This document shows, piece by piece, positions 24,383 through 63,774 of a DNA stretch of 64,000 bases. Below the pieces are notes generated by a model. That model searched no databases. It had not been told where the DNA came from and was given only the letters and a program-made list of their open reading frames with translations. Numbering within the stretch: position 1 is the stretch's first letter; each line of letters opens with the position of its first letter. Position numbers and translations under genes: made by a program. Source of the stretch: Octopus vulgaris (Eukaryota); assembly GCA_951406725.2 (NCBI GenBank), contig OX597814.1:81592001-81656000 (forward strand), written 5' to 3'.

Positions 24383-24415
<33 letters not shown>

Positions 24416-29696: not shown

Positions 29697-29776
29697 CAAA
29701 GTTATATTTAGTTCCTCTTTTCTATTTCGTTTCTTAATTCTTTCAAGTGCTGTTTCTGGATGGCATCTAAGATAAA
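29697..29776 (-). CDS. TK2: TK2 exon 8, lid region (IYLRCHPETALERIKKRNRKEELNITL)
   Basis: gctattccag| acceptor, |gtttgt donor, 80 nt; YLR..PE...R..KR.R.EE lid motif. Confidence 0.95.
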
Positions 29777-30779
29777 CTGGAATAGCAAAAATGTTTAATA
29801 AAATTAAATGTTAAATACTGTAATAAACTAAAATTCTATGCAGAGTTTTTTTAAACTATTCTCACTACATTAACTATGGTAACAATGACTTTACTACAGG
29901 TCAGAGTTAGTTCACTGCAAACTAAAATATTGCCTTTCAAATCTGTTTTTCAATACAAAGGGGAAATGGTAAGATTGCAGGATTTGAATTTTAGAAAAAA
30001 AAACAAAACACCAGAGTAATGGACCAAATATCTTTATAACTCTAGGTTTTGATTTCAAAATCCAACTGAGGTCAACTTTGGTTTTTTACTCCTCTTATCA
30101 CACAAGACAAAATCAATATTGGTTGATGCAATCAACAGTAACACAGTATCTTTAACAGTTAACATGTAGTTATGCCAATGAATGGGCAGGGACAAGGTAG
30201 ATAAAGTAGAGCTCTAACCAAAACACTTTTGAGCATCTATTTTGCAGTTCTTCATTTGAGATGATTGGATTCCATCTTTCTTTACTCCAGTGTCAATAAA
30301 ACCAACTACTTATCATGTACTGGAGTTGAATCAACCAATACACCCACCCACCCATCAAATATGTGGCCTTGTCTCCAACTAAGAAATCATTATTAATTTC
30401 TCCACATGAAAGGAGGAAGAGGAGGAGGTTGTTATCATCATCATCATCATCATTTAATATTCACTTTTACATGCCTACATGGGTCAAGCAGAGTATATTT
30501 GAGGCAGATTTTATACAGCTGGATACCCTTCCTATCACCAACCCTCACCTGTTTCCAAGCAAGCTAATATTTCCCCATGGCCAGACATATTTTTCCAGAA
30601 TATTGGGAAAGAATGACACTGCTTGTATGACAGTGACACTCATTTACAACAACTATCACACAATGCCAAGACAAGGATACATGTACATGCATGCAATCAA
30701 ACTATTATATATATATATATATATATAAATGTAACAAGGATGTCCAGATATCAATAAATTACAGCCATTTAAAGCAGCT

Positions 30780-31455
30780 CCATTTAATTGATCAATGAAA
30801 ACATTACATCAATTTGAAAGAAACTGCTCTCCTCAGTTGTAGATGACCATATAGATTTCCAACAAAAAGGATAAACCATTTTTAACAAATTTATATCAAC
30901 ACTAAAAACCAAAATAATTACATTGTTTCCTTATGTTATATTTGTGGCAGAATCTGCCACCTACTGGATATAGCAAACATACATTTCTAAATACCAATAA
31001 AGGAGATGTAAACCACAATGGAAAGCAACAAGTACAGCCAAACTGTGATAGTAGAAATGATTATGATATAGCTAACATGGTAACACTGTCAGAAAATGAA
31101 GTCAGAACTGCCATATATACAAATAAATATAAATGCTCATGCAGAGAGAAATCAAAATGCCCACTGACGAACCTCTGTATGAGTACAAATCTTGAGCATA
31201 AATGTACTGTGCACACAAGGGGAAGATCATATGTTTACATTGGGCAAATGGCCAATTGATTTAAGAATCATTATTGCAACAATGTTGCCAGCTTGAAGAG
31301 AATCAATAAGAGACATTTAACATCTTTGGCTGATTTTGTGTGGCAACTGAAGGAAGATAAAATTAAGCATAGCATAACTTGTCCATAGTATGGCACGTAA
31401 AACTATACAATATCATTTCCAGGAGATGCCATCTCTGCTCCAAGGAATCCCTGTC
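30780..31455 (+). mobile_element. Penelope-like GIY-YIG remnant
   Basis: CSCREKSKCPL..LC…VYIGQ…F…TSLADFVWQLKE…RRCHLCSKE. Confidence 0.8.
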
Positions 31456-31732
31456 TATGCATGTAATTGGGAAGCAAGCTTCTTACTTCACGGTCATGCC
31501 TGAGCTATGTTTCACTACATATCTTTATGTTTCAAGCTAAAAATTTTACCAGTTTTTATTTTGTCTACTAGCTCAACATAGTCAGTTCACAAGTATTAGA
31601 AACATACAGAGATCAGTGCAACAGAATATATTCAATTCCCTAGAAATTTGTGATCATGTACCAAGTTATAAATCAGATACAATTAATTCTGTCAAAAGAT
31701 TATAAGATCAGTACAAAAATATAATAACTTAC

Positions 31733-31821
31733 TAATTTGATCAACATGAAAGTCAAGATGGTTGGTAGCCCAGTTAAACCACTCAGTTAAAACTTCATAG
31801 TCCACACTTGGCATTAAACCA
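31733..31821 (-). CDS. TK2: TK2 exon 7 (GLMPSVDYEVLTEWFNWATNHLDFHVDQI)
   Basis: ctttctgacag| acceptor, |gtaagt donor, 89 nt; matches human GKMPEVDYVVLSEWFDW; visible within ORF 31692..31880. Confidence 0.95.
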
Positions 31822-32605
31822 CTGTCAGAAAGAGAATTAACAAACATGAAACACAGCACAATGGTAACATTAAATAACAAGTTATTGTACTTATTGGTTT
31901 TACAGTGGTATTTGAATGGATTATTTCATATTCTTACTGATTAGCCTCATCCTTCATCAAGCAAATCTGATATTCTAGCCTTTATCACCCATCTTTTTCA
32001 ATGACAAAATCAAATGTGTGGTTCCTATTCCAAGATGGCAGAGTGTGATCTGATGGTAATTTGACTGTTATTCATAGAAGAATGAGCAACCACAAAGAGT
32101 ATTGCCTCATTCTCATTGTTGATGCTTAAAATGACAATAGGGTGTCTGGATCAGTAAAGCATTAAGTTGAATGACATACAAAAATCAATTTTTAATTCTA
32201 CACAAGTTGATTTTGTCTATCTTCCTTCCAGGATCAATACAATAAGTATGAGATAGGTTTGTTAAAGCTGGTCAAACCACTACCTTACACATCTACAACA
32301 TCATAACACTGTGAGAAATAATTATTCATTGTCGTTCTTAAAGTGGAGGAATGACATAAACACTTCAACAACACAGGACCAAATGCTGTGCAGCTTTTAG
32401 TTTCTATCCTCCATTGTGGTTGTACTTGATTTCAGTCTTCATATATTAATAACATAAGTACTAGTAATATACTGAGCTCAACTGAACTGCAGTAGGTTCA
32501 ATTTATATAAATTTATTCTTCAGCTGGGACTGATCAAAGAATAAATTTAATGTAAATGTAGACATTGGATACATAAGGTCTGGAAAAGAAAAAGGTGAGC
32601 TTTAA

Positions 32606-32826
32606 CCCTTTGGTGTTCGCATTATTCTACCAAAATTAATGCTTTTTCATCCACATTGTCTTGAACTAATCATGCATTATCTTGTAGCTTTGAGATTTCG
32701 ATGAGGTAGCTGTTAATTTTTAAAACGATATTGTAGGGTTGGTGTGAGAGACCAGATCTGGCCATTTTGAACATAAAACAGGCAGAATACTTTTGGCCAG
32801 ATATGGCCGGTTTAAATGCTAAAGGG
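32606..32826 (+). mobile_element. piggyBac-type MITE (TTAA|CCCT…AGGG|TTAA)
   Basis: TTAA target duplication with CCCTTT/AAAGGG termini; homologous copies at 7254-7461 and 34977-35197. Confidence 0.8.
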
Positions 32827-33149
32827 TTAAACCCACCACATCATTCATAAAGTGATTAGTAAGAGATATACATTCAAGTACCTTCATAAACCACAATTTT
32901 TTTTCACTATTTATCAAAATATCCCACCCATTTTATGTTCACATTTACATTTAATATTAGAGAAATGTAGGTGTAAGCTGAAAAAAAGTGTAGAGAGCTG
33001 AATCAAATCTTTATTATATTTAGTTTCATACTTCAATGCTCTGAGTTTAAACCTTGTTATAATTAGGTCTGTCTTTCATTCTGCCAAGATCAATAAAACA
33101 AATACTCATTATAAAATAGAATTCATTCCCAAGAAATGTAACTTTTTCG

Positions 33150-33770
33150 ACTGATAACTGTCAATCTATTGCACCCAGTTCAAACATCTCAAAATGCAGT
33201 GAAGACAGTTGCAAACAAACTCCTTCATAATTTTGAATCTTTCTCTCTCTCTTTCTTTCTCTCTCTCACTTTTCACTGAACATCAGTATGGTTTCTGTAG
33301 TATCAAAGTAAGTGAAACTTGCTCTCGTTTGTCATATATCAGTAAGAATTTCAGTAAAAGTGGGAAAAGCAAATTACATTAGCAAAGCATCAAGCCATGT
33401 CTAGCATAAGAACTTTGTAGATAAGCTGTCTACCTATGGGCTTTATAAATCACACACCTCTTCAATCGGAAGTTTCCTAACAGATCACTCAGTTGCCACT
33501 GTCAGGGTTTACTCTGAAATATTCTGTCCCTTCTGGTGTACCCCAGAGTTCAGTTATATTGCCATTAGTTTTCTTTCTGTAAATTGACAACTCATTCGAT
33601 CTTTCTTCTAATCACATACATACACATGCAGCTGATTTCACCTGTCATTTCTTTCTCAGTTTGTACAAAAGATTTAATCCATAATCGACCTCCTCATCTC
33701 ATATCTTGTTCACAGTGTTTCCAGAATAATGTAAACCCATGATTCTTCAACAGAATACTTCAACACAAAT
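33150..33770 (+). mobile_element. Highly decayed LINE (CR1/Jockey-group) RT fragment
   Basis: HQYGFC, ISKA….HK…KLSTYG, SFL, SGVPQSS remnants. Confidence 0.55.
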
Positions 33771-34140
33771 ACACAATTATGACACATACAAGGGAAAATG
33801 TCTTGCATTACATCCTCCATGCTTATAACCAAACAGCTAAAGCTTTCAGATTTACTTTAAATGACAATCCTTAGAATCTTTGATAATCTTTTAAAGCAAT
33901 TTTACATATACAATATTGCCAAAACTATAAATAAACCTGGTTCCTTCGGGGATGGCAAAAATATTTCAGCTTGATCAGTTGGTAACCTTCTCCACAAAAG
34001 CAAGGTGCAACTCACAAGAAAGTTCTGTAACTGAACTCAACTATCTTACACAGCAATCAAAAGAAAACCATTTGACAAGCTTATTCAAACAGATGAGGAT
34101 AAAAAAAGGGTTTCAAAGTAGAAAATGTTGCATGAACTAC

Positions 34141-34214
34141 CTTTTGTACAAATTCTCTACAAAAACATATTTTGCACTATAAATAGACCTCTCCATCATT
34201 TGTACTGGTTTGGC
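34141..34214 (-). CDS. TK2: TK2 exon 6 (AKPVQMMERSIYSAKYVFVENLYKS)
   Basis: ttttccag| acceptor, |gtagtt donor, 74 nt; catalytic ERS motif. Confidence 0.96.
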
Positions 34215-34768
34215 CTGGAAAAAAAAATAGATGAATTACTTAGAAATGAAAATCTAAGTAATATATATAAAAAAAAAAACGTTTGCACAAAGAGCTTAGT
34301 TTAGCAAATATGCTTCAATTTTGTGGACAGATTTTAATCAGCAAAATAAAAGTGATTAATATTTATCTCTTGTACAGGTGCAAAAGACAATGGCAAGTTT
34401 TATCATCAGAGGTATACATCAATGAAAGGTATAACCAATGAGTGATCAAACTTTCTGACTATTCGTTAGATAATGAAGTAGATAGTTTTTGTAAACCAGG
34501 TGACTAAATCCAGTTGTAGCTAGAGGAACAGAGAAGTGAAAGATATTCAAGGTGGAAATGTTTCTGCTTGTTTCCTTCCACATCTTTCTTTGTCTTCCTG
34601 ATACTGAAAGTTAAGCATGAATGGTAAGGACAAGTGGTGTCTCAGGACTGGAAGGAAACAATTACATGACAGTTAGCAAGGTAGGTTATTAAAAACTATG
34701 TAACTTAAATATTAAGTTTGGCATCAAAAACTTGCAGCAAGTGTGAAGCATATTTAGTATTTACTTAC

Positions 34769-34858
34769 AGATTTACTCATATGATTTTGTAGCATTGTGA
34801 GTTGGACATAAGACTGGAAAGTAAATCCCCAACGATAAGGGTCCTTGTACATCAGATC
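34769..34858 (-). CDS. TK2: TK2 exon 5 (DLMYKDPYRWGFTFQSYVQLTMLQNHMSKS)
   Basis: tcttttcag| acceptor, |gtaagt donor, 90 nt; conserved LMY..RW..FQ.YVQLTM substrate-binding helix. Confidence 0.96.
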
Positions 34859-34976
34859 CTGAAAAGATGAGAATAAGAAATTACAAAATACTGCAAGTTA
34901 TAAATGACTAAGTTATTTGGATGCCTGCCTACCTACTACCACAAGTTCATGGCAAATGCATTGGACACTCCTTTAA

Positions 34977-35197
34977 CTCTTTAACATTTAAGCCAGCTAT
35001 GTCCAGCCTTAATATTCTACTTGTTTTATGTTTAAATCAGCCAAATTTGGCCTATCACATGTATCCTACTATGTCATTCTAAAAAGTAAACAATGATGAC
35101 ATCAAAATCTTGAATCTACAATATAAACCATAATTAATTGAAAACAATGTGACTAAATAAGCATTACATGTGGCAGAGTAATCTGAATGCTAAAGGG
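34977..35197 (-). mobile_element. piggyBac-type MITE, inverted relative to the 32606 copy
   Basis: Its reverse complement aligns along the full length with 32606-32826; TTAA flanks. Confidence 0.75.
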
Positions 35198-35586
35198 TTA
35201 ATAAACCCAGTTCATCTTGCCATAATTAGACATCTTGAAGTGAAAACACTTTAGTTCAGAAGCAGTATAAAGTAGCTTTCATTAGCCTGGAGTTCTGAAC
35301 TTAAACTGTTCCAATAGGTATAACATGAGCCAAATATGCACCCTGTTGAAAAGGGGAAATGTCCCCCCCCCACCCCAACCCAGTCATTTTGTACAGATGA
35401 AATAAGAAGCTAAAACTGAAATATTTTAACACATAAGCTGCAAATGATGAAAAGTAGGTGGGGAAAGAAAAGAAATAATTTTTTTAAAATCCAATAAAAA
35501 GTAGAAAAGGAATTTAAAATTATGGATATATTCATTTTCTCTCAAAGAAGTGTTTCACACCAAAATGTATAATTTTCAACATATAT

Positions 35587-35814
35587 GGCCCAGTGGTTAG
35601 GGCAGCGGACTTGCGGTCGGAGGATCGCGGTTTCGATTCCCAGACCGGGCGTTGTGTGTGTTTATTGAGCGAAAACACCTAAAAGCTCCACGAGGCTCCG
35701 GCAGGGGATGGTGGTGATCCCTGCTGTACTCTTTCACCACTCTAAAAGGCGGTGCTTCAGCATGGCCGCAGTCAAATGACTGAAACAAGTACAAAAAAAA
35801 AAAAAAAAAAAAAA
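35587..35814 (+). mobile_element. Young tRNA-derived SINE with poly(A) tail
   Basis: A-box TGGCCCAGTGG, B-box GGTTTCGATTCC, CpGs retained, family-B-type 3' end and a run of about 22 A. Confidence 0.8.
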
Positions 35815-36129
35815 TATCACTTCAAAAGACACTAAAATATTCCTTTATTCTTTTTTTTGCTTTCCTCATTCTCACTGCATACTTTTTAATGCTCACTACA
35901 TTAAATGTATTAATACAGACATATTTATAGTTAAAGCTAAGGCAGCTGTCTATATCTGACTATAAGAGTACAAGAATACTTGCTCCATCAATATGGAAGT
36001 TCTTCAGATGCAACTTCTTCAGAGAACTGCAATAAATTTATTGTGCTACATATTACAGTCATTTGTCTATGTAAACATTATTTTATTATTACTTTTCAGT
36101 GGCTTAGTTCTACATACAGTATCGGAATC

Positions 36130-36578
36130 AAATTCAATGACTGGCATCCGTGCTAGTGAGCGCTAAGAGCACCATCCGAGCGTGATCGTTGCCACAGCAG
36201 CTAACTGGCTTCTGTGCCAGTGGAACATAAAAAGCACCATTTGAGTGTGACTGTTATCAGTATCACCTTACTGGCACGAGAAAAAACATTCGTGCAAGGT
36301 CATTGCCAGTGCTGCTGGACTGACTCCTGTGCAGGTGGTACATAAAAAACACCATTTGAGTGTGGCCGTTGCCAGTACCACCTGACTGGCCTCATGCCGG
36401 TGGCATGTAAAAGCACCCACTATACTCTTGGAGTGGTTGGTATTAGGAAGGGCATCCAGCTGTAGAAACTGCCAGAAAGATTGGAGCCTGGTACAGCCAT
36501 CTGGTTTGCCAGTCCTCAGTCAAATCGTCCAACCCATGCTAGCATGGAAAGCGGACGTTAAACGATGATGATGATGAA
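36130..36578 (-). mobile_element. RTE-tail-type non-autonomous retroelement (family C) ending in (GAT)n
   Basis: GGAAGGGCATCCAGCTGTAGAAAC…CATGCTAGCATGGAAAGCGGACGTTAAACGATGATG with ~60-bp internal tandem units. Strand is given relative to the 42450 copy. Other copies at 10030-10190, 24565-24695, 26760-26935, 27670-27845, 39970-40140, 42450-42795, 46160-46400 and 56715-57150. Confidence 0.75.
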
Positions 36579-36924
36579 GTAGGGAGGTAGTCACCTTCAA
36601 ATCAGAGGCCCTAATGCTTGGAAGAGTGTAGTCTCCACCAAAGGTACATAAAATTATGTGGTGATACACCAAACAAGATTTAACTCTACCACCCAATATA
36701 CCTCTGTTCACTATACTTGTTGGCTGTTGATATTTGTTGCCAGTGAATGCACACTAACAAGAAATCTCTTCACAGTAGAATTTAAAATATTTATTGTAGA
36801 AAATTATCTTTTGTAAATAAAAGGAATGTTCAAGGAATAATACAACTATGTTTTTACAGAAATATTTTTTTTATGGTTATCTGAAAATTCACAGTCAAAG
36901 TAATGAAAAAGTTTGGACATATCC

Positions 36925-36985
<61 letters not shown>

Positions 36986-37146
36986 TTTTGCTTGTTTCAG
37001 AGGCTGTGGCTGTACTGAGGTATCACCATTCATATATATATATATTGTTCATATATGTCAAAATGGATATTAATTTGACTAGATTTTCTTGAAATAAAAA
37101 ACTTTCAAAGAAAAGTAAAGATATTGGTTAAAAGTTTAAACTTTAC

Positions 37147-37200
37147 CAGCATATTATGACCATTTACATTCTGCCATTTCTTGACAGCTTCAGAGATAAT
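37147..37200 (-). CDS. TK2: TK2 exon 4 (IISEAVKKWQNVNGHNML)
   Basis: ttttttag| acceptor, |gtaaag donor, 54 nt; aligns with human VLTEPVSKWRNVRGHNPL. Confidence 0.93.
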
Positions 37201-37346
37201 CTAAAAAAATAAATAAGAATAAAAAAGGATTTTTAAAAATCTAAAATTCCTTTTGTACACAAAAGTGTACAATATGTGTGTGTGAAGTGATACACACACA
37301 GAATTAATATGTAAATATTCCTATATATGTATATACTACACACACA

Positions 37347-38586
37347 CATGGGTTGGACAAAATAATGGAAACACCTAGCATCATAGCATAATAATTTTGA
37401 AATATCCATAAAACCATCAAATGCTTGTTTATTTTTATGTTTTTTGATTTACTATTAGTGTTGCTTAATATGTTTTGCTAAAATTGCTGTTTCTTTTCCG
37501 ATATCATCAGAAAAAGGTAAATAAAATTCATTAAAATGACAGATCTATCAAACTTTCAAAGAGGTCAAATTGTTGGTGCTTGTATGGCAGGTGCTAGCAT
37601 AAAAAAAAAACAGCTGCAATGTTTGGTGTATCAAGAAGTACTTTCTTGAAAGTAATGACAGCCTTTGAGAAAGAGGGAAAAACCTCCTTGTCAAAACAAA
37701 ACTCTAGAGGAAAACCAAAACTTTCAGATACTCTTAGGCGAATTGTTAGAAAGGATCACAAAAGTACAGCTCCCAAAATTACTGCAGAGCTTAATGACCA
37801 CCTCAAGAACCCAGTTTCCACAAAAGCTATTTGCTGGGAGTTGCACAAAGCTGGATTTCAGAGGAGGGCTGAAATCAGAAAACCACAACTTTCAAAAACA
37901 AAAGTTGCAAAGCATTTAGAGTAGAGTAAAAACCTATGGAATTGGTCCCTAGAGCAGTGGGAAAATTTTCTTTTCTTGGACGAGTCATCCTTTACCTTAT
38001 TTCTGACCACCGGCCGCGTATACATGTGGAGACAGCCAAAAGAAGCATTTGACCCTGACTGTCTTCTTTCAAATGTTAAACACGGAAGATGATCTGGGGA
38101 GGTTATATCTAGGAAATCCGCTGGCCCAGTGGTTACCTTACATGGCAGAATTAACAGTCAAGACTATTTAAACATTTTATCTGATCAAATTCCTCCTATG
38201 GTTGCAGAACTGCTTCTGGAGGGAAACGCAATCTTTCAGGATGATAATGCACCAATTCACACAGCTAAAGTTATTACTGAATGGCATGAGGTACATTCTC
38301 GTGAAGTTAAACATCTTACCTGGCCACCACATTCCCCAGATCTCAATATTATTGAACATTTATGGGGCATTTTAGAAAAACAGGTAAGGAGTCGATATCA
38401 TCCGCCAAGAACTGAAGACTGTTTTAGCTGCAGAATGGACAAAAATTCCTTTGGAAGCAAGTCAAACTTTGTACATCTCTATACCTTGTAGAATTCAAGC
38501 TGTAATTACTGCCAAAGGCAGTACTACCCCATATTAAAATAAATTTGTTCAAACTTTTAACATGTTTCCATTATTTTGTCCAACCC

Positions 38587-38589
<3 letters not shown>
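37347..38589 (+). mobile_element. Tc1-family DNA transposon with DD36E spacing, pseudogenised transposase, both TIRs
   Basis: TIR CA(T)GGGTTGGACAAAATAATGGAAACA / TGTTTCCATTATTTTGTCCAACCCCTG|TA. Transposase MTDLSNFQRGQIVG…FLDESSF…FQDDNAPIH…SPDLNIIE. Confidence 0.95.
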
Positions 38590-38626
<37 letters not shown>

Positions 38627-38928
38627 TCTTCTTATCAGAAAAAGAGATGACACAGAAAAAACAATGGTTATGTTATAAACTTCATTAGCTTACAGCTGTT
38701 TCAGCTAAAAGATGCAATGGACTCATAGTTGAGTGCCTGAATACCATCCTTCAGCGTCATTGGAACCTCAAATTTGAAGTTCAATTTATTTGGGAAAGAA
38801 GAATTACATTTTTGCAAAATACAGGGAAGTCATTACCAATGAGATAATCATTACTGATGTATATACAAAAGTGTATGTCCAAAAAGCAATTAGATTTACA
38901 AGTAGAAAATGTAGAAAAAATATATGTA

Positions 38929-39812
38929 CAAGGTCTGATCAATAAGTATCTGGACTGTTGCCATAGTAACAAAGCTAAAGCATGCAAAGTGAAGCTGCTC
39001 AGCAAAAATTGACCTTGAACTCTGTTGTGCATGTGCACTAAGTTTTAATGTTCCAGCTCACTTCGCTGTTTACAGCAGTGCTTGGTGTGTAGTGTGTGAT
39101 CATCACATTGACCAAGACAGAGAAAGTTGTCATGGCAATACCTGCTCAGAGGCCTACACAATGTTGCAGAAAGTGTATAGAGGGGAGTGTATGAGCCACA
39201 CACAAGTGTACAAGTGTTTCAGATGTTTCCAAGATGGCCGAAAAAATGTTGATATTAATGAAATCTCTTGGAGACCCACAACCAGCAGAACTGAGAAAAA
39301 CATCACAGATGAGCATGCAGCTGTGAGGGGAAATCATCAAATCACCATCCAAGAGTTATCAGAGGATGTGCAGATTAGTTACACTTCAGTTCAGTCCATT
39401 ATCACTGAAGATTTGGGTATGAGATGCATGTCTGCCAAGTTTGTGCCAAAACTGCTTTCAGCTAACCAAAAGGACACTCAGGTTTCAGTTGCACAAAATC
39501 TCCTTGATTGTGTCAAGAATGATGAGAACTTTTTGAAAATTTTGCGTAGGCCTCCGAGCAGATATCGCCAAGCTTTTGGCAAAACTTGATGCAAATTCTC
39601 TGCTCAACTTTCAGTCATGGTCAATGCGATGATTACATGCTATACACGTTCCTTCCAAGCACTGCTGTAAACAATGGAAGTGAGCTAGAACATTAAAACT
39701 TAGTGTGCATGCACAGCAAAGTTCAAGGTCAATATGTGCCAAGTAGTTTCACTCTGCATGCTTTAGCATCGTTACTATGGCAATAGTCTGGATACTTATT
39801 GATCAGACAACG
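38929..39812 (+). mobile_element. Non-autonomous mariner with fold-back (5' end duplicated in inverted orientation)
   Basis: TA-flanked TIR CAAGGTCTGATCAATAAGTAT / ATACTTATTGATCAGACAACG. HTH half of the transposase (ORF 39092..39589, SAKFVPKLL). Inverted arms of about 230-270 bp. Confidence 0.92.
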
Positions 39813-40149
39813 TATATATACACACATGCACAAGCACTTGAAAAATGCATGCTCTACACAGACGAACATATACACATTACATAAACACACAGAAAAAAGA
39901 AAAACAATGGAGACAAACCAAGAGCGATCCACACTCATACACACACAGACATATATTCTTCTTGATGCCATGTAAAAAGCACACAGTCCACTCTATAAAG
40001 TGGTTAGTGTTATAAAGGGCATCCAGTTGTAAAAACCATACCAAACAGACAGTGAACCCTGGTGCAGTCTTCTGCCTAGCCAGCTCCTGTCAAACAATAA
40101 ATTCTATGCCAGCATGGAAAATGGACATTAAATGATGATAATATCCTTT

Positions 40150-40735
40150 GTTTTTCACATAACATATCACTTTATTTTATGTCTTCGCAATTTTGTTTAC
40201 AGCTGTTAGTTCATGTCAATTTTAACATGGAGTGCAAAAACGAACACTTTTGCCATATTTTGCTTCTTTATTTCCATAAAGGTAAGAAAGCTGCTGAGGC
40301 TCACAAAGAGATGTGTGAAGTTTATGGTGTTGATTGCTTAATAGAACGCACATATCAGAAATGGTTTTAAAAATTCCGTTCTGGAGATTTTTCACTCAAA
40401 GATGACCAATGTTCTGGTTGACCTACTGAAGTTGATGATGACTGAATCAAAGCCATAATTGAATTTGATTGTCATATAATTGTGCAAGAGATTGCAGAGA
40501 GGTTAAATGTATCACACACAACAATTGAAAATCACTTAAAATGTCTTGGACTCATTAAGAAGCTTGATATTTGGGTTCTATGTAAATTGAAAGAGATTCA
40601 CTTAACACAACAAATCAATATTTGCGATATGCCTCTCAAACACAAGGAAATCAACCATTTTTTGAAACGAATTATCACTGGTAATGAAAAATAAATTGTC
40701 TACAATAACATCAATCAAAACGATCATGGTCCATG
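40150..40735 (+). mobile_element. Mariner transposase 5' remnant
   Basis: MECKNEHFCHILLLYFHKGKKAAEA…KFRSGDFSL…KKLDIWV…FLKRIITGNEK*IVY from ATG 40227; multiple stops. Confidence 0.9.
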
Positions 40736-41352
40736 TGTGTAGTAAAACAGAGTGATCTGCTTTAATGATGTATATCAAATCGCAACCAACAATTCAGTAA
40801 AACAAATAGTTGTCACTGCCCTCCTCCTCCTCCTCATTGTCTTCATCATCATCATGACGGTTATTATTATTATTATTTCATAAGGTGTCAAGTTGGCAGA
40901 ATTGTTAGCACACCGAGCAAAATGCTTAGCGATATTTCATCATCTTTACATTCTGAGTTAAAATACAGTTGAGGTCAACTTTGCCTTTCAATCCCTTCAG
41001 GGTCAATAAACAAGTACCAGTTGAGGACTGGGGTTGATGTAATTGACTATCCCCCTCCCCAAAATTTCAAGCCTTGTGTCTACAGCAGAAAGGACTATTA
41101 TTATTATTTCAATGTCTATTTTTCCATGCTTATATTAGTCAGATGAAAGTTCATGGAGGCTGAATGTTTATCTGGTTGCCAATTCTCACTTATTTCCAAG
41201 TGAAGTAACATTTCCCCATATCTATCAAACAACAAACAGCTCAGACATACTCTCATGGAGCATTGTAAACAAAAGACAAAATTTATTCGAGCAGTGTCAC
41301 TTTGTTTACAATCAGTGCACACATGTCAAGACAAGAGGAATACACACACACA

Positions 41353-41399
<47 letters not shown>

Positions 41400-41626
41400 G
41401 CACACATACACACACACACACACATAGAAGGTTTCTTTACATGTATCAAATTTCATTTGTGATGTAACTGGTCAGTCTGTGGCTATGGTAGAGAACACCA
41501 GCCAACAGTGTCCATGCAATGAGAGCAAATTCCAAACCACGTCATTCTGAAGTCAACTTCTCAACCGCACAACTATATTTGTATCAATTAAACAAATTGT
41601 TAGAAATTCTTTATATTCACACATAC

Positions 41627-41701
41627 CTCTATTGTAGGGTCTTTAGCAAAAAAGTTAAGCATTTCTGATTTACCAGCACCAATGTTTCCTTCAACACAGA
41701 T
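41627..41701 (-). CDS. TK2: TK2 exon 3 with P-loop (ICVEGNIGAGKSEMLNFFAKDPTIE)
   Basis: cattttcacag| acceptor, |gtatgt donor, 75 nt; deoxynucleoside-kinase P-loop EGNIGAGKS. Confidence 0.95.
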
Positions 41702-50240: not shown

Positions 50241-51379
50241 GAAGACATTTGTTCAAAATGCCACACAATGGGACTAAACTTGAAATCACATGGTTGCAAA
50301 GTGAGCTTCTTAATCACACAGCCATGCCTGCAATTCTTAAATGACACAAGGAAATTTCTAGGGATCCTTTTGCATGAAGGATATATATGTAAGTTAAACA
50401 GCAACACAAATGCGCATGCATACACACACATATGTGTGTATGATGTATTAATAGAGTCATTAGAACACCAGGAAAATTATTCATTAAGCTAAGGCAGTGA
50501 GCTAGCAGAATCGTTAGCACACTAGGAAAAATGTTTAGTGGCATTTCATTCATCTTTACATCCTGAGTTCAAATTCCACCAAGGTTGACTTTGCTTTTAA
50601 TTTTTTCAAGGTCAAAAAAAAAAATAATAAGTACCAGTTGAGCACTGGGGCTGGTGTAATCAACTTAATCTCTCCCACAAAACTACAGGCCTTGTGTCAA
50701 AATTTGAAATCAATATTATTCACTATGCTAAGGTAGTGAGCTGGCAGAATTGTTAGCATGCTAGGAAAAATGCTTAGTGGCATTTCATATTTTTATCTTC
50801 TGAGTTCAACTTGCCTTTTTCCTTTCAGGGTTGATGAAGTAAGTATCAGTTGGACACTGAGATAGATATAATCGACTTACCCCTCTCCTGAAAGTGCTGG
50901 CCTTATGCCAAAATTTGAAACCAATATTATTTTTCAAGTTAACAAATTACTTTGGTGCAAATAGTGAAATCTTGAATACTTATCATTGAGAGTTCAATTT
51001 ACAAAATTACTCCTCCCACAAAAGTGCTGGTCTTGTGCCAAAACTTGAAACTAATGTTATTTATTAATCTGTCTGCATATTGAGTTGAAATCTTACCTGG
51101 GTCAGGTTGCTTTTAATCCTTTCAGAGTCAAACTACCTGATACTTTGGCACCATATGGTTAGATTGGCTGAATTGTTAGGGATTCAGGCAAGATGCCTTA
51201 CTGCATATGTTTCAAGTGTAACAACTAAGGCAAATCAAAAATGGTGCTGGGAAGAGTCATGAAGTAAGTTTCCCCATTTGGAGAGACATCAATAAAATTT
51301 TATACAAATACCTTTCAAAAAGCATAGATTATGATTACAAAGAAATTTGTAGGCAAACATTTTTGCAAGGGTGCCAGGG

Positions 51380-52143
51380 GAGGAGTTTCTGAAGAACAGT
51401 TTTGGATCAGACAGCCCATTTAAGTTGGAATTTCTGTTTTGATGGGGATTTTTCCCACTATTTTTTCACTACAGCTTTCAAAATGATCCAAAAATTTTTG
51501 TAGTTAGGGTTAGGGTTAGGAAAAAAAGCAAAAATGAAGAAGGTTGGGGGGGGGGGGGCGAAATTTCAAAATGCCGATTTTTGGTAATTTTCCGGAATCT
51601 CCATATCCGAAAACGAGGGTTTTGGGGGGAAAAAAAGGAGGGGGGAGTGGAAGGAAGTCTTTCCAATGTGCCTCCCATCATTCTGAAAACTGGAAAAGGT
51701 TCCCGTCAAAATTCCTACGTATGTGGGCCGTCTGATCAGAAGCTCCTCCTCCGCCACCTAACAAAAAAGTGGTCTAATCGTAATCTATGCCGTTTGAAAG
51801 TTATTTGTATAAAATTTCATTGAAAGATACCCATTCTCCGGAAAGTAACGAGGGGGAAAAAGTCGTGTCCTGTGAATTTTCCGAAACCACTCCTACCACC
51901 TCCTCGGATAAATATTTTGCAGCAAATCTCTACATACATTCAATTTACCGATCTAAGCGATATTTGTTAAAAATTTCGTTAAAAAGTATCCATTTATCTG
52001 GAAATTATGAGGCAACAAAGACGGTGAGGTACACATCTGTAGTTATGCCCAATACTCCGCCCCCAATGATGATGCACCTAAGGGTGTTCCATAGATGAGA
52101 TTAAGGGAAAAAAAGTTCGGACTGTCCGTATTTCAAATCTGAG

Positions 52144-52199: not shown

Positions 52200-53729
52200 G
52201 CTCCTTTAGAAACGCACCTCTCCAAGAAAATGAAATGCAATTATAAAAAAAAAGTTATGAAAATATATACAAAATAAATTATGTATGCAAAAAATTAGAA
52301 AGATTCATCCATTTTTAAATATTTCATACTAAATATAAAACAAACAGAAAACGGGCACTGGTGAATATAAACAAACATGATGGACGGATACAAGGGTAGG
52401 TAATTTACTTTTACCAGTCAAGTAATTATTAACGATTCTAGGAGCCCGACAATATCCTTTGAAAATCCTTGATTGTTTTTAATCAGATTTTTTTCTTACT
52501 GTGCACACTTGTTAGGGTTAGGTGGTGTGCACTCGCTTTACCTTCACCCATTCTATGATGTTGTGATATACGACAGAAATAATTATAAAACAATAGAGTA
52601 AATATGTCTAAGACGTATGCAAGTTTTGTTATTTTTATTTTCGCTTTCAGTCTACAGAGGAAATGAACATACTAGCACCATAGCCCGGCGTTATCAGGGT
52701 ATATACGAAACTTTGTTGATAAGCATCTATGGATGTCCGAATAGTTCGTTGGTCTGAAGTTTCGGCAGATCGGATCATGGCTTTGTAAGCGGCGTCAGCA
52801 GCTTGGCGGGCTCTCTTCTGTTGAGGTGTTTCGGCAGATCGAGCCATGGCTGTGTTTGCGGCGTTAGCAGCTTGGCGAGCTCTCCTCTGTTGTGGTGTTT
52901 TGGCAGATCGAGCCATGGCTTTGTTTGCGGCGTCAGCAGCTTGGCGAGTTCTCCTCTGCTGTGGGGTTTCGACAGATCGTGTCCTGGCGGTGCTAGCGGC
53001 GTTAGCCGCATTCCGAATGGCCCTTTGTTCGGGGTTCTCGCGAGCTCTGCGGATGGCAGCACAAAGAGAAGCCCGCATGTTTTGGCTGAACCGTTGCTCT
53101 TTCGTCAACCTCGAGCGGAGGGAAGATCTGTACGCTGCGGCCCTTGCAAGTCGGGTAGAACGGTCGCTAGTAGTTTCAGATGCCTGAGCAGCGGCAGAAC
53201 GGGAAGCATTTTTCGAGAGGCGCCAGGCGGTTTCCTCGTGGGTCTCGCGTGCCCTTCTAGCCCTAGCAGCCGATGCCTTGGCCGTCCGAGGGCTGAGGAG
53301 GGTCCTTCTCTTCTTGGGTGGAATTTTGGTGGATAGCAATGTGTTTGGCAAAGGTGTAATAAAAAGGAACACGTGGGGTAAGTATCCCAAAATGTATTAA
53401 AATGTACAAAAACGGGAAAAAAGCGGGTCAGAGTGAGGGTACAACCTGACAGACACACAGACAGACAAACTGTCTTTTATATAGAGAGAGATAACTCACT
53501 ATTTGGCCCCTCGTATCTTTAATAATATGACTGGTAAAAGCAAATTACCTCCCCTTGTATCGCCCAATATGTTTGTTTATATTCGCGAGTGCCCATTTTC
53601 CGTTGTTTTATTTTTTAGTATAAAATATTTAAAAATGGATGAATCATTTATTTTATATATATTTTCCATTTTCATAACTTTTATAAAATGGCATTTCTTT
53701 TTCTTGGAGAGGTGCGTTTCTAAAGAAGC
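52200..53729. mobile_element. Long-TIR (foldback/Mutator-like) non-autonomous element hosting the Helitron
   Basis: About 230-250-bp inverted arms, 52200-52447 and 53505-53729 (CTTTAGAAACGCACCTCTCCAAGAAAA … TTTTCTTGGAGAGGTGCGTTTCTAAAG). Confidence 0.8.
52672..53491 (-). mobile_element. Complete non-autonomous Helitron (820 bp) carrying the STPR-repeat N-terminus of a RepHel protein
   Basis: Minus-strand 5' end A|TCTCTCTCTATATAAAA at 53491. 3' imperfect hairpin CCCTGATAACGCCGGG followed by CTAG|T at 52672, giving an A|T insertion site. Internal ORF with 23-aa ETPQQR..RQAA.AA..AMARSA repeats. Confidence 0.88.
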
Positions 53730-54732
53730 GTCAATTTCCGTGAGCATAAATCCTTAAAAATGTTTTAGCCCGAAGGCCGCGGCCATGCTGGGCACCACCG
53801 CTGACAAAACTTCGATTTAAATTTTCTGAAAAATTCCAAAAAATAAAAGTTATATGGTGTGCGTCAAGACGTGCATAGTTAAAATCTTTTCTTTTTTTTA
53901 AATTCAAATATACTACAATCATTATCATATCGAAATATACTAGTAACTCCATCAGATTAGTCTTATGTAAGCAACCAATCATTGAAATCTTGTGTAACCT
54001 TTTTACAGAGCTATGCTGAATCAAACAAGACTCTTTACACAGTTACATATTTTGAATATACAAAAATTATTATTTGTTTCTTTGAAAAAATTTACGATGT
54101 TCGTGATATTATATATATATAGTTTACTATCTCATTTTGAACTTATGGCTGTAATTCGAAAAAGGACCACCGACACAGATCCGAGCCATAAGATCGAACC
54201 CGGATAAAAGCGGTTGCGCACTTTTCTTAACCACAGACATACATACTTTACAGAGGTAAGCGGAATGCTTAGCGGCATTTCGTCTGTCTTTATGTTCTGA
54301 GTTCAAATTCCGCCGAGGTCGACTTCGCCTTTCATCCATTCGAGGTCGATAAATTAAGTACCAGTTGCGTACTGGGTCGTTCTAATCGACTGGCCCCCTC
54401 CTCCAAAACTTCGGGCTTTGGGTAGAAAAGAATTTGTCACCGTAATATGAAACCTCACCACTCGTTTCCTTTTAATTACAGCAGTAGCGTGCGATGATAT
54501 ACATATTTGGCTGTTATATCTAGCAGGTCGAACGACACGCAAGAGTCTCTCTCGTTCGTACATGTTATTTTATATTTTCAACAAAAACAAGTGGTTAATA
54601 TTAAATTTAAACTTAATATTAACCGAACAAATTATAATGCATATTATCTACTGACGATATTTCTTTTTTTTTTTTTTTTTCTTTAATTTCAAAAATATAC
54701 ACGAATGGAAATAGTGAAAATATATTGCTTAC

Positions 54733-54808
54733 TCCTGATGTATCCAGAGCGCAAAATTTTCGCTGATCGCAAATACAAGCGACAAGCTGAGATATGTTTT
54801 GCAAACAT
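54733..54808 (-). CDS. TK2: TK2 exon 1: mitochondrial targeting presequence MFAKHISACRLYLRSAKILRSGYIR
   Basis: ATG at 54808, 76 nt, donor a|gtaagc (phase 1). Arg/Ser/Leu-rich with no acidic residues; splices in frame to the exon at 47386-47426. Confidence 0.75.
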
Positions 54809-54899
54809 TATTTATGCTTAATATGTTACTGCTTGTGCTAATGTTGTTATTTCTCTCTTAAATACAATGTTGAATAAATAAAATGAAAGAAAATTCCAT

Positions 54900-54965
54900 A
54901 TTCCAGTCGAACAGCTCCACGATATTCAAAATCTAAAATAGTCAACACGTCACTTCCTGTTTGTG
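54900..54965 (-). promoter_or_regulatory. Putative TK2 core promoter with ETS-CRE composite site
   Basis: ACGTCACTTCCTGT at 54947-54960 (reverse complement ACAGGAAGTGACGT), about 140 bp upstream of the TK2 ATG. Confidence 0.5.
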
Positions 54966-55359
54966 CTAATAACAGATGCCGAAAGGTCAAGAGATTTGTT
55001 TTCCCTAGTTTCGAAGATTTCAGGATACAGTATCTTAAGTTTCAGTCAGGTTAAGCTTGCAGTGGAAATGAAAGCTCCTTTATATATATATATATATGAA
55101 GCAAAAATGAAAGTAATTGAAATATGAAAAAAAAAAATAAGACATCCCTGCGTAGTAAGCTTATTTCCCAATCATGTGGTTTCGGGTTCACTCCATCTGC
55201 GTGGTACCTTAGGCAAGTATCTTTTAATACATCCCTGGGCTGATCAAAGTCTTGAGAGTGGATTTGGCTGACGGACACTGAAAGTAGACCGTTGTGTCTA
55301 TCTATTTATCTATCTATCTATCTATCTATTTGCATACATATAAATAAATAAATTAATTA

Positions 55360-55958
55360 AAGATGGAGATGGAAATAGCACAGAAGTAAGCCTAAAACAT
55401 TTCAATTTAAGAGGGAAATTAATATAAATGATTCTAAAAATTGCATAAAGAAAATATTTTCACTTTGACCGGCAGATTTAAAATATAATTTCTTTGGAAC
55501 TAAACGCTTTTAAACTTCGTATACTGGTAGAATATGTTACATAAAACATCTTTTTCTCTTGGCTTTCATGAGAAAATTCTGTAGTTTGTAAGCTATTTGT
55601 TGTTAAATTTCTTGCATTTCGGCAATTTCATCCAATCAATGACGTCTATTGAGGTGAATACAATTACTGCTGTTGTTTGTCAACAGTTTTGATGGATTTC
55701 ATCTTATCAAATAGCAGTAAAAACTTATAAAAATTTGAAAAACAGTTTATCTCCAGTCTGGGAGTCAAGAGAAGACTTCAACAAAAAATCTCCAGACATG
55801 TTCTTGACTCCCAAATTTTTATGGATATTTGATAAGATGAGATTCATTGAAACCGGTAATATTTTATTTATATAATTTTTAAAATCATTTTTATTAAATT
55901 TCTTCTTAAATTGAAATGTCTCAGACTTACTTCTGTGTTATTTTTACCTTCATCTTTT
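55360..55958. repeat. Foldback element (about 100-bp outer arms, inner inverted repeat) interrupted by another repeat
   Basis: ACAGAAGTAAGCCTAAAACATTTCAATTTAAG / CTTAAATTGAAATGTCTCAGACTTACTTCTGT; inner CATCTTATCAAATA…GGGAGTCAAGA / TCTTGACTCCC…TATTTGATAAGATG. Confidence 0.7.
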
Positions 55959-56031
55959 ATATATAAAAATTTGAGTTTTATAGTACTTTAAATTTTTTTT
56001 CAACTATATATATACAGTTGAAAAAAGATTA

Positions 56032-56655
56032 GAGATTGGGACCGATACGATAATAAGGGAATTTTTTAGAAATTTCTGTCGGCTTACTTCGAGACAAATG
56101 CATATAGTGATAAATTATATGGTTATGGACGATTTGTCTATTTTTGGCGTTAGAATTTTTTCTTTTTGCCCTTGTTTATAAGTTGTTTATAAATTTAACC
56201 TTTAAAGGTATTTTTTAATATGCTGGCCATTGATAGAATTTTTTCCGAAAAATTTTATCCTATATTAGATGTAAAATGAATAGTGTTCACTTCCGGACTC
56301 TCTCACTCTATGAGAGCTTTCAGTCCGATCGCATGTGTCTCGAGGTGTGCTGGAGAATTTCTATTTTGGATATATTTAGGATACTTAAGTGTGCTCATAA
56401 CTTAGTGTTTGCTTCTTCCATGGGTATAGGTAAGTATTTTATTTATTTCAGCGTATTTATCGCTGACGAGGAGAAAATTCTTATGAATTAACTCTGAAAT
56501 TGGGACCGATACAATAATAACGGAATTTTTAGAAATTTCTATCGGCTTGCTTTCGAGACGCGTGCTTATAGTGATGAATTATATGGTTATTGACGATTTG
56601 TTTATTTTCGGCATATTTGGCATTGGAATTTTTTCTTTTGCCCTTGTTTATAAGT

Positions 56656-56658
<3 letters not shown>
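56032..56658 (+). repeat. Partial tandem direct repeat with 464-bp period (retrozyme/pLTR-like)
   Basis: 56032-56186 is homologous to 56496-56658 (GA.ATTGGGACCGATAC.ATAATAA…GCCCTTGTTTATAAGTTGT). Confidence 0.85.
56457..56517 (+). ncRNA. Type I hammerhead ribozyme motif
   Basis: Stem I TTATCG - CTGACGA - stem II GGAG…CTCT - GAAA - stem III (A)TTG ggac CGAT - A (cleavage) - stem I' CAATAA (CGATAA in the sister copy). Confidence 0.7.
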
Positions 56659-56696
<38 letters not shown>

Positions 56697-59934: not shown

Positions 59935-60809
59935 ATTCTCCTCTATGGCAGAATTTCATCTAATACAGATTAAGCCAAAACATCAGGACAACAGCAGATC
60001 AAAGGAAATTTGCAGCATGGCTCTTGCATCTTGGCAACGGAACATATGCAGCTCCAGAAGATCCTAATCTTGCAGTTGATGACATATAAGGGTCTCAGAT
60101 TTCATGCGTTGATGGCTCTCTGGTGGATGATATCTTCAGCAATAGATCTGAGGAACAAAGAAAAAGCAGAGTAATTCTTTCACCAAAGAACTCAGACTGC
60201 CTCCTGATCAATGAAGAAGTTTTGAGACAACTTCCAGGTGACTGCCGCACCTATTATAGTACAGATAAAGTTTTGACAGATGATCCTGCTAAGGCTGAGC
60301 GCTATCCTCTTGTATTTCTAAATGTTTTGACACCATCAGTAATACCTCCTCATAAATTGAGTTTAAGACCTGGCTCAATAGTAATGCTTCTTCATAACAT
60401 TTCTACCCAAAATGGACTCTGCTGTGGTACAAGACTGGAAGTGGTAGCCATGCATCAACATTCAATCAAGGCTTCCTTGATTAGCGGCTCACTAATTGGC
60501 AGATGTGTCCTCATCCCCAGAATAAAGCTGGTTCCAAGCGACCCTAACTTGCCATTCACCTTGGAGAGAACCCAGTTTCTTGTCCGTTTGTCATATGCCA
60601 TGACTATTAACAAATCACAGGGGCAGACATTTGAGAAGGTGGGATTGCTCTTACCTCAGCCACTGTTCAGTCATGTGCTGTTGTATGTGGCATACTCTAG
60701 AGCTCGCAAACTCTCAGATGTAAGGGTTAAGGTGGTGGAGACAGACAGACAAGGAAGAAGAGAGTGAACCGTTATTAAGAACATTGTCTGCAGAGAGGTA
60801 CTGACTTGA
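59935..60809 (+). mobile_element. Helitron PIF1-type helicase C-terminal remnant
   Basis: FAAWLLHLGNG, ILSPKN, PPHKLSL, GTRL, IPRI, RTQF.VRLSYAMTINKSQGQT, LYVAYSR, NIVCREVL motifs; contains stops and a frameshift. Confidence 0.92.
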
Positions 60810-60913: not shown

Positions 60914-63774
60914 TTTTGGCAGCGGAAACAATTATTTCTCGACAAATATGCTACAAATTACGGTAAAGACACCAGAACTCCGAGAAATAGCATTAAAAGT
61001 GGACAACCTCACCAACGCAACATACACCAGAACACGTGGCAACATGAACACCCGTTTCACCACGAATCGAAGACGAACTACGGTAAGAACTCTTCCCATT
61101 TTGTATGCAAACACCCTAATGCACACAACATGAACAAAAAGCACAAACAAAATAGATATTGTTTTGAACAGACCATTAGCAGTAGAAATAACAGGAGATC
61201 ATTTTCAAGACCTCAACAGAGATTACCCACAAGAAACTGGACAAAAAACCGATCTAGATCTAGAAGTAAACCCAGATCATTTCTCCAGGTGGTTAAAAAC
61301 AATGCTAACAAGAAATTGAAAAGTAGCATACATAATACCAAAAACAAGACAGAAAACATAACGAAACCAAGTAAAGTACCACAACCAAAACGCAAAATTC
61401 ATCAAGCAAACATCAACAGGAATATAAATCATAACCAGAAAAAAATCCATTTTTTTACGTCAGGACAACAAACACCGGAGAAAGAAAAAATCCAAGAAAA
61501 AATCCAAGAGGAAACATACCCCAAACAACTGAACGTATAGATCCTAAAATAATTAATTTATCAAAAAGAGATCTTGACAATGATGAAATCCAACTTCTGT
61601 TAAAAGGACTGAAATTCACACCTACACCAACAGCCAACCACCAAGAATTAAAGGAGGATATCCAAAAATTCTGTCGAAAATTACGACTTGTAGAATTCTT
61701 CGCTAACAAAAGTAATGAGATTGATGAATCCCTAGTAAGGAATAAATCAAATTTCACCCCACCAAAAGGAAGAAATAACTACCTTGACCAATACATTGAT
61801 ATCCTGTCTAAATTTCCCCTTAGACGCAATACCAATGTTAGGCCAAACATTAGCAAATCAGAGATGTCTGCATGTAAACGTATACAAAACGATCAAACAA
61901 TAATAATTAAACAAGCAGATAAAGGTGGTGCAATTGTTATTATGGATACCGAATACTATAAGGATTTGGTTGAAGACCAACTGAAGGATACAACCTTCTA
62001 TTGTGAAATACCCGCAAATATAGACCACCACATCATGAAAAAGATCAACAACCTGATTTCAACACACCACAACTCACTTACGGATAATGAAAAAGACTAC
62101 ATCACCAATTTTGAACCAAAACCCAGCAACTTCTACGGCTTACCAAAAATACACAAATCAAAAAACATTCAACAGGCAGTAAAAGAACAAGAAAGTGAGT
62201 ACATAAAATTATTACATCCAAAAGACCTAAAACTTAGACCTATTATAGCTGGTCCAGCATGCCCTACACACCGTCTAAGCAATTTTATTGACATTGTTTT
62301 GAAACCACTATGTACTTACATACCAAGTTTCATCAGGGATGACATCGACTTCCTGTCCCATCTTCCCAAAACAACAGAAACAAATTCAGTTTTACTAAGT
62401 TTTGATGTGGTAAGCCTCTACACCAATATTCCACACGATTTAGGAATAAAGGCGATTAAATACTGGTTAGAAAAACATAGAGAAGTGATTCCCAGCAGAT
62501 TCACAGTGCCATTTATATTAGACACAGTCAAACTTATTCTAGAAAATAACACATTCTTCTTCAATGGAAAGAATTACATCCAAATTAGAGGCACGGCGAT
62601 GGGAACGAGGTTTGCTCCCGTTTACGCCAACTCTGTAATGGGATACTTAGAAGAACAACTCTACCAAGAGGTGGAGGTAAACTATGGCACTGGATTTAGA
62701 AAGTATATTGAAAAGGCATGGAAGAGATACCTAGACGACTGTTTCATAATCTGGACAGAATCTCTAAATACTCTGGAAGAGTTCAATATCCTCCTGAACA
62801 ACCTACACCCATCTCTCAAATTTACAAAGGAGATGAGTAGTACCAAATTACCATTCCTGGATATAATGGTAATTAAAAAAGACACCACCATCACCACAGA
62901 TATATACTATAAACACACAGACACACATCAATACCTAAATTTTAAGTCGTGCCATCCACCACATACAAAACGTAACATCCCATACTGCCTAGCCAGAAGA
63001 ATTTGTACTATTGTAGAAGATGCAAATATCAGGAACAAACGCCTAATAGAACTAAGAAAATTTTTGCTCAAACAAAAATACCCATCTCTACTTATAGAAA
63101 ATGGCATACAGCGGGCTATAAAAATACCTATACAACAACTTAGGACAACCCAAGGAAGAGGAAAACAAGAACAAGTCATACCATTCATAGTGACACACAA
63201 CCCATGTCACCAGAATATCTTCAACATTGCCAAAGCAAACCTACCAATCATTGCCCAAAGTAATGAATTAAAAGACATAATCAAGGATCGAGCTATGGTG
63301 CTTAGTAAAAGACAGCCTAAAAACTTGAAAACATTACTAACAAAGGCAAAATTTGACCTCAGCAACAAAGACCAAACATTCACGGTATCTAAATGCAATG
63401 ATAGCCGATGTGGCACATGCCAATTCATACATACCGGTCAATATATAAACACAAAAACCGGGAAAATATTCACAAACGCGAATATGAACTGCAAAAGCAG
63501 AAATTTAATTTACTGCATCAAATGCCCAAATTGTGAAGAAATATATGTAGGTCAGACGGGAAACGCACTATTAGAACGCTCACGTGTACACCGGCAACAG
63601 ATTAGAGACCCAGAGGTCCGTCAGATACCTTTGAGTAACCACCTAGCAACATGTGGTCGGAAAATATATATAATATTTCCATTCTACAAATTACACAGCC
63701 CAAGTGAAATCGAGAGGAAAATCAGAGAAAAGAATTTTATTGATAAATTCGAACCCAAGCTAAATAAGCAATAA
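60914..63774 (+). mobile_element. Penelope-like retroelement (RT + GIY-YIG), 5'-truncated, near-intact
   Basis: ADKGGAIVIMD, FYGLPKIHK, RPII, FDVVSLYTNIP, GTAMG, RYLDD, LPFLD, C-x4-C-x2-C and IYC..YVGQTG (GIY-YIG) motifs. Begins right after a (TA)n tract; upstream basic ORF 60914-61540. Confidence 0.95.
61435..63774 (+). CDS. Penelope-like reverse transcriptase/GIY-YIG endonuclease; frame open from 61435, first ATG at 61864
   Basis: ORF-track 636-aa ORF. The same frame has no stop back to 61435 and contains the PLE N-terminal motif IINLS…LLKGLKFTPTP…FCRKLRL. Confidence 0.9.
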   Translation, partial: PEKNPFFYVRTTNTGERKNPRKNPRGNIPQTTERIDPKIINLSKRDLDNDEIQLLLKGLKFTPTPTANHQELKEDIQKFCRKLRLVEFFANKSNEIDESLVRNKSNFTPPKGRNNYLDQYIDILSKFPLRRNTNVRPNISKSEMSACKRIQNDQTIIIKQADKGGAIVIMDTEYYKDLVEDQLKDTTFYCEIPANIDHHIMKKINNLISTHHNSLTDNEKDYITNFEPKPSNFYGLPKIHKSKNIQQAVKEQESEYIKLLHPKDLKLRPIIAGPACPTHRLSNFIDIVLKPLCTYIPSFIRDDIDFLSHLPKTTETNSVLLSFDVVSLYTNIPHDLGIKAIKYWLEKHREVIPSRFTVPFILDTVKLILENNTFFFNGKNYIQIRGTAMGTRFAPVYANSVMGYLEEQLYQEVEVNYGTGFRKYIEKAWKRYLDDCFIIWTESLNTLEEFNILLNNLHPSLKFTKEMSSTKLPFLDIMVIKKDTTITTDIYYKHTDTHQYLNFKSCHPPHTKRNIPYCLARRICTIVEDANIRNKRLIELRKFLLKQKYPSLLIENGIQRAIKIPIQQLRTTQGRGKQEQVIPFIVTHNPCHQNIFNIAKANLPIIAQSNELKDIIKDRAMVLSKRQPKNLKTLLTKAKFDLSNKDQTFTVSKCNDSRCGTCQFIHTGQYINTKTGKIFTNANMNCKSRNLIYCIKCPNCEEIYVGQTGNALLERSRVHRQQIRDPEVRQIPLSNHLATCGRKIYIIFPFYKLHSPSEIERKIREKNFIDKFEPKLNKQ

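Follow-up and report, generated by a model that had tools for sequence, protein, structure and literature searches.

A non-autonomous Helitron with an STPR array in intron 1 of a TK2-like gene of Octopus vulgaris, and its probable origin by internal deletion

The window, a stretch of 64,000 nucleotides of Octopus vulgaris DNA, contains a deoxynucleoside-kinase gene of the TK2/dNK group on its minus strand (Table 1). Exon 1 of this gene ends at 54733 and is followed by GTAAG. Its basic leader is probably a mitochondrial presequence, which makes the label 'TK2-like' reasonable. An 820-bp Helitron lies on the same strand between exon 1 (54733-54995) and the kinase exons (29.7-41.7 kb), as stated in an earlier note on this DNA, which had placed it sense to TK2 in intron 1.

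Table 1. Features in and around the Helitron, and contigs covering it (positions in the window).
Feature	Positions	Strand	Remarks
TK2-like exon 1	54733..54995	-	ATG 54808; 25-codon basic leader; phase-1 GT donor 54732
Downstream deoxynucleoside-kinase (TK2/dNK group) exons	29700..41701	-	best PDB match Drosophila dNK
Left arm of older 248-bp inverted repeat around the Helitron	52200..52446	+	79% identity between arms
Right arm of 248-bp inverted repeat	53505..53729	-	13 bp from Helitron 5′ end
Non-autonomous Helitron (HLE1-type)	52672..53491	-	820 bp, between A and T
5′ terminus	53445..53491	-	TC, TATATAAAA, (CTGT)n microsatellite
ATT in place of the transposase start codon	53322..53324	-	element nt 168; Met in relatives
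PPKKRR	53304..53321	-	putative NLS; start of RepHel
STPR units 1-7	52764..53246	-	23 aa each
Partial STPR unit 8	52737..52763	-	
69-bp DNA tandem repeat	52759..53006		3.6 copies, 85% matches
First in-frame ATG	53076..53078	-	gives 143 aa with units 4-8
3′ terminus	52672..52705	-	degenerate 16-nt palindrome (52699-52684), then CTAG; unstable hairpin
Flank	52634..52649	-	TGA closing the frame (52649-52647); AATAAA (52639-52634)
Contig, run X1	52620..53462		one 843-nt contig, 1 difference
Contig, run X6	52622..53462		one 841-nt contig, 3 differences
Contig, run X9	52675..53462		
Contigs, run X12	52578..52756 and 52730..53395		overlapping

The inverted repeat around the Helitron forms a foldback or MITE-like element, about 710 bp long, in which the Helitron lies. 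A contig from one sequencing run (X12), with 19 differences over 52512-52663, suggests other copies of this foldback element, and its two arms could pair in the pre-mRNA. The Helitron has an observed-to-expected CpG ratio of 0.96; its flanks have 0.90 and 1.44, and the gene body 0.22. According to one study, 5mC in octopus is placed on gene bodies, frequently leaves the start region free and is not a mark of transposons (PMC9476566). Because the flanks are equally CpG-rich and methylation does not lie on transposons, CpG content is uninformative about age; it was rejected as a clock, and the youth of the element cannot be argued from it, as had been done. In human cells, the transposon Helraiser is reported to insert preferentially near promoters and CpG islands (PMC4778049), which fits the insertion site found here.

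On the minus strand, the element begins with A^TCTCTC at 53491 (the caret marks the boundary), reading A^TCTCTCTCTATATAAAA, and ends with CTAG^T at 52672; the flanks read ...GTTA and TATG.... A 5′ TC, a 3′ CTRR and an A-T target characterize the HLE1 group in the HELIANO study (PMC11417382), and HLE1 derivatives share these three features and the absence of Rep and helicase with the present copy. The T-T target and short terminal inverted repeats of HLE2 (Helentron) elements were not found at these ends. The terminal motifs are common when taken alone (ATC 13.8 per kb, CTAGT 0.6 per kb), and the boundaries were drawn from motifs together with homology. The head TATATAAAA..(CTGT)n, in contrast, has only three occurrences in the window, including one that precedes a PIF1 remnant. 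The element has a G+C content of 53%, against 35% for the window. A 3′ hairpin had also been claimed, but the palindrome is not stable: it folds at -1.4 kcal/mol, no better than shuffled sequence (z=+0.91, with 164 of 200 shuffles equally good; z from +0.35 to +0.91 across foldings), and its pairing is limited to the outer CCC/GGG. This CCC..GGG remnant lies 12 nt from the 3′ end, and the HLE1 hairpin about 11 nt before the end; unlike the latter, the palindrome here does not fold and is either a decayed hairpin or none.

Further copies were absent from the 64-kb window, where a 21-nt pattern of the 3′ end matched only the element itself. The same pattern gave no match in viral contigs, a 28-nt pattern of the 5′ end gave none in metagenome contigs, and a protein query against metagenome contigs gave 346 pattern matches with none confirmed; these collections are not expected to include the host and are uninformative.

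A stop-free frame of 249 codons runs from 53396 to 52650 on the minus strand. It is open throughout the element and ends at a TGA in the flank; in 1000 base shuffles, no frame reached 241 codons, its length inside the element. The seven full 23-aa units and the partial eighth are present in this frame exactly as first listed, and an ATT does stand at 53324-53322 in place of the ATG before PPKKRR. The description of the array as 69-bp tandem repeats is borne out by the 3.6 copies in its later part, but the DNA of units 1-3 has only 28-47% identity to the other units.

The identity of the array was established by profile search. The Pfam family STPRs (PF21107) matched the frame with E=2.6e-14 and 53.8 bits, against a curated cut-off of 27, and was the only family there, in line with the reported lack of Rep and helicase; the other four frames across the element gave no Pfam family above cut-off. 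The only sequence match in the PDB, found with phmmer, was silkworm FMBP-1 (E=2.5e-5). The 23-aa period is strict. Glu1 occurs in six of the eight units, Thr/Ser2 in seven and Arg9 in seven, and these are given as the three most conserved STPR residues in an earlier study (PMC4856987). Unit 3 lacks Glu1, as it does in relatives, and unit 6 has Lys in its place.

An AlphaFold model (mean pLDDT 89, pTM 0.39) predicts helices spaced 23 residues apart, in keeping with the zig-zag of tandem helices and short linkers of STPR domains. Among 48,161 chains, the first in rank was DNA-bound FMBP-1 (5d23_A; Z 7.7, next 6.0; 0.9 A over 64 residues). For helical repeats, a Z below 8 is a modest score, and the FMBP-1 structure may have been part of what the model learned. 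A Foldseek search of the model against the PDB gave no match at E<=0.001. The array and the STPR of Bombyx mori FMBP-1 (PDB 5D23/5D2Q/5D2S) share the 23-aa period and Glu1/Thr2/Arg9 in most units. In contrast, the array has 7.5 units where FMBP-1 has four, and Leu10, Tyr16 and Arg20 are mostly missing from it. It is also transposon-borne, has no host gene structure and, going by sequence and model, is a putative DNA binder; the target of STPR domains is the major groove of AT-rich DNA.

A phmmer search with the frame found 97 related proteins, of which 56 contain STPRs and seven Helitron_like_N. The start MP(P/R)(K/R) is present in 18 of the 97 and RepHel N-terminal motifs, by regular expression, in 19, with both in 10. 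Eight chosen relatives are colinear with the frame at 96-135 bits; the best of 100 shuffled queries reached 55 bits. Five of these eight align query residue 3 to subject residue 2, so the ATT occupies the position of their Met. The closest named relatives are cuttlefish proteins, and with one relative (P0020) as query, 39 proteins were found, 34 of them from Acanthosepion pharaonis and several labelled Helitron helicase-like. The RepHel fragments of Acanthosepion (Sepia) pharaonis (P0019, P0020, P0098; unnamed P0003, P0004, P0029) have a colinear N-terminus with 40-45% identity, an MPPK(K/R/W)R start and the same atypical third unit, which is common to the relatives and thus ancestral. They run on into a Cys motif and Helitron_like_N, whereas the octopus frame extends no further than unit 8 and lacks an ATG. 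A word-index protein search found no protein near the length of the frame and, at longer length, one mosquito STPR protein but no full-length parent RepHel.

The presence of STPRs at RepHel N-termini, mentioned in the earlier note, thus agrees with the domain content of these relatives and with HELIANO, which names STPRs as one of 20 domains that Helitron-like elements carry stably and finds it nearly always in HLE1 (PMC11417382). STPR in Helitrons is therefore already published. HELIANO places STPRs among domains encoded in an open reading frame separate from RepHel (PMC11417382), whereas the predicted relatives have the array and RepHel N-terminal motifs in one chain. Two gene predictions, P0002 (2069 aa) and P0008 (1905 aa), combine STPRs, DUF6570, Helitron_like_N and PIF1 in one protein; they also have OTU or endonuclease, i.e. 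are of HLE2 type, which differs from the near-exclusive HLE1 association and the separate reading frame given by HELIANO. HELIANO, as preprint and paper, was the only literature found to join STPRs and RepHel. The excerpts of a Xenopus Helitron study describe transcription-factor peaks at the 5′ end and in those passages do not mention STPR (PMC12001565).

Since the frame is colinear with RepHel N-termini from the first residue, the array is not cargo. Capture of a host STPR gene was rejected; the match to RepHel sets in 168 nt from the 5′ TC. Nor is the array a module 'spread' by the family, as had been proposed. It appears instead to be the first approximately 210 codons of the element's own transposase, retained where an autonomous HLE1 has STPR upstream of a RepHel core. 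The element is non-autonomous, as had been recognized, with both ends present and homology to proteins that run into Helitron_like_N. The description 'complete mini-Helitron' stands for the two ends, but the interior appears to be deleted, with about 35-45 nt of the 3′ terminus left.

The element was also found in assembled sequencing runs. Twenty of 24 listed runs, from eight studies with three organism labels, contain 79-92% of its 77 sampled words; four further same-study runs contain none. Four of these 20 runs (X1, X6, X9 and X12), chosen for containing the element, were aligned to 52200-55070. None of the element-containing runs is recorded as RNA, and X1 was guessed to be DNA yet carries spliced exon 1. 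In three of the four (X1, X6 and X9), the exon-1 contig ends its match exactly at the donor and continues into sequence from outside 52200-55070; these runs therefore behave as RNA. The X1 and X6 contigs are unbroken from the array into the 3′ flank of this locus and end 14 and 12 nt beyond an AATAAA that lies 33 nt past the 3′ end of the element. These ends hint, weakly, that the element has a polyadenylated RNA of its own, ending near the flank AATAAA; its strand, start and level lie outside the contig data. The X12 contigs likewise pass the 3′ junction, and X9 stops at 52675 with eight unmatched letters. Bins 52776-53351 have one contig per run, bins 52392-52487 are uncovered in all four runs, bins 53928-54215 are uncovered in three, and exon 1 is uncovered in X12. 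Since contigs show presence only, depth does not rank the parts of a gene and the runs were preselected, neither the blanks nor the depths were taken to prove that the transcript is separate or the copy number low.

The same AATAAA and contig ends would suit an alternative terminal exon of TK2, by which the element, on the same strand as the gene and with an acceptor-like TGTCAG^G at 53445, would receive exon 1 by a splice into it or just upstream and yield a truncated TK2 isoform. However, the exon-1 contigs of X1 and X9 continue unbroken past the donor with about 1,100 nt of sequence that lies outside the region, and the element contigs of X1, X6 and X9 reach 53462, upstream of that acceptor. 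No splice from exon 1 to the element occurs among the 15 joints shown, of 22 in the four runs. Of 87 AG acceptors, only three would bring exon 1 into frame with the STPR array; these three lie inside the array and have weak pyrimidine tracts. The three best-looking acceptors are out of that frame. Exonisation into TK2, suggested earlier, thus found no support in these runs, and a terminal exon is considered very unlikely.

It is equally doubtful that the contigs come from many near-identical copies of a young non-autonomous family that disperses the STPR module. Both termini are present, and the eight unmatched letters of the X9 contig could be another flank. The first 30-65 nt at the 5′ end are matched by many short contigs, so that this head is common to other sequences too. 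Yet the single contigs of X1 and X6 run into the 3′ flank of this very locus with no difference in the flank, CpG richness is common to the flanks, the hairpin is degenerate and the ATG is lost.

Window and contigs differ at four positions, and each difference changes the amino acid (S>P, V>A, T>A, W>L). Such an outcome has P=0.22 if neutral and 0.009 at omega 0.2, figures from a small sample without a matched DNA run. At 53224, the C of the window is an A in all four runs, giving Leu, the residue of the relatives, in place of Trp; this difference may be a private allele or an assembly error. A-to-I editing has a 5′ neighbour preference. It was considered unlikely as the source of the variants, since each A has a 5′ G neighbour. 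Units 5-7 gave an omega of about 0.5 (six synonymous and eight non-synonymous changes; p=0.16), which is not significant. Several of their variant bases are common to unit 4, and for this reason unit divergence was rejected as a clock. Only in a young copy would the 217-codon frame be expected to be intact, without stop or frameshift: its simulated survival is 0.26-0.62 at 2% divergence and falls to 0.03-0.33 at 5% and to 0.001-0.12 at 10%. A burst of Helitrons in Octopus vulgaris was dated at a distance of 0.09 in one study (PMC13282606).

An intact frame, implausible under neutrality at 8-10% divergence, invites the reading that the locus is a fixed, transcribed deletion derivative whose frame is translated, from the AUU (approximately 225 aa) or from the internal AUG at 53078 (143 aa). 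The resulting NLS-STPR protein would bind Helitron ends or AT-rich DNA and act as a dominant-negative repressor, or as a nascent, domesticated host factor. The precedent is KP of the Drosophila P family, a 207-aa protein of which 199 residues are identical to the start of the transposase and which represses transposition (PMC4938643). As here, an internal deletion left both ends and about 200 N-terminal codons including the DNA-binding region. KP, however, belongs to an unrelated transposon class, is translated, widespread and a proven repressor, whereas the octopus element lacks an ATG; the analogy would be one of anatomy only. The native start codon that KP keeps is an ATT in the window, with no variant listed in the four runs. 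This ATT has A at -3, and the first AUG of the RNA, at 53209 and thus ahead of the in-frame one, is out of frame. The modelled array appears to keep STPR geometry, the N-terminus of Helraiser is described as needed for DNA binding (PMC4778049), and the array is covered by contigs in all four runs, which, like the 20 of 24, had been found by the element's own words. All four variants being non-synonymous, the Glu1>Lys change in unit 6 and the stop borrowed from the flank speak against constraint on a protein, and translation of this kind is judged unlikely.

The locus is best explained, with a probability of about 0.7, as an internal-deletion derivative that was mobilised in trans and is now in decay, found in RNA yet yielding no useful protein. 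Its ancestor would have been an autonomous cephalopod Helitron whose RepHel started with an NLS and an STPR array. One large internal deletion would have joined the 5′ end and the first approximately 210 codons to about 35-45 nt of the 3′ end. The derivative would then have been copied in trans into an A-T site within the older foldback element in TK2 intron 1. Thereafter, the start codon was presumably lost and the terminator hairpin decayed; the ATT, the Lys in unit 6 and the unstable hairpin are the marks of decay. The element possibly makes its own polyadenylated RNA, ending at the flank AATAAA, and its frame is most likely an unselected relic, untranslated from the original start. Several points weigh against this explanation. 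The frame would be unlikely to stay open in an old copy, Arg9 is kept in most units, the model superposes on DNA-bound FMBP-1, and omega in units 5-7 is below 1, though not significantly so. In addition, the variants come without a matched DNA run, that at 53224 is perhaps an assembly error, and no autonomous parent from the same genome was seen.

Elsewhere in the window, a second, decayed Helitron at 16700-18762 (-) has a TC..TATATAAAA..TGTCTGT 5′ end at 18762, followed by a broken PIF1 (PF05970, E=1.3e-23 at 17158-17457). A C-terminal PIF1 fragment, open for 225 codons, lies at 60090-60764 (+), and a Helitron-like 5′ head without a known body lies at 45824 (-). An apparently intact Penelope-like element occupies 61435-63774 (+), with a 779-codon frame containing reverse transcriptase and GIY-YIG. 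Remnants of Tc1/mariner transposases are found within the kinase gene at 37598-38491 and 38993-39589 (+). Near the start of TK2 are two inverted-repeat pairs (51289-51337 / 51775-51823, 90% over 49 nt; 55356-55458 / 55858-55960, 83% over 103 nt), as well as a direct repeat of 170 bp (56032-56197 / 56496-56669, 84%). An open frame at 24090-24572 (+) has two C2H2 zinc fingers and runs into a TA microsatellite.

On the most likely reading, the element adds one to the known non-autonomous Helitrons and is a clear example of an STPR array that belongs to the N-terminus of RepHel in a cephalopod lineage and was not captured as cargo. If its frame were translated and constrained, it would be a protein-level Helitron self-repressor like KP of the P element, or would indicate a route from transposases to FMBP-1, ZNF821 and other STPR transcription factors.
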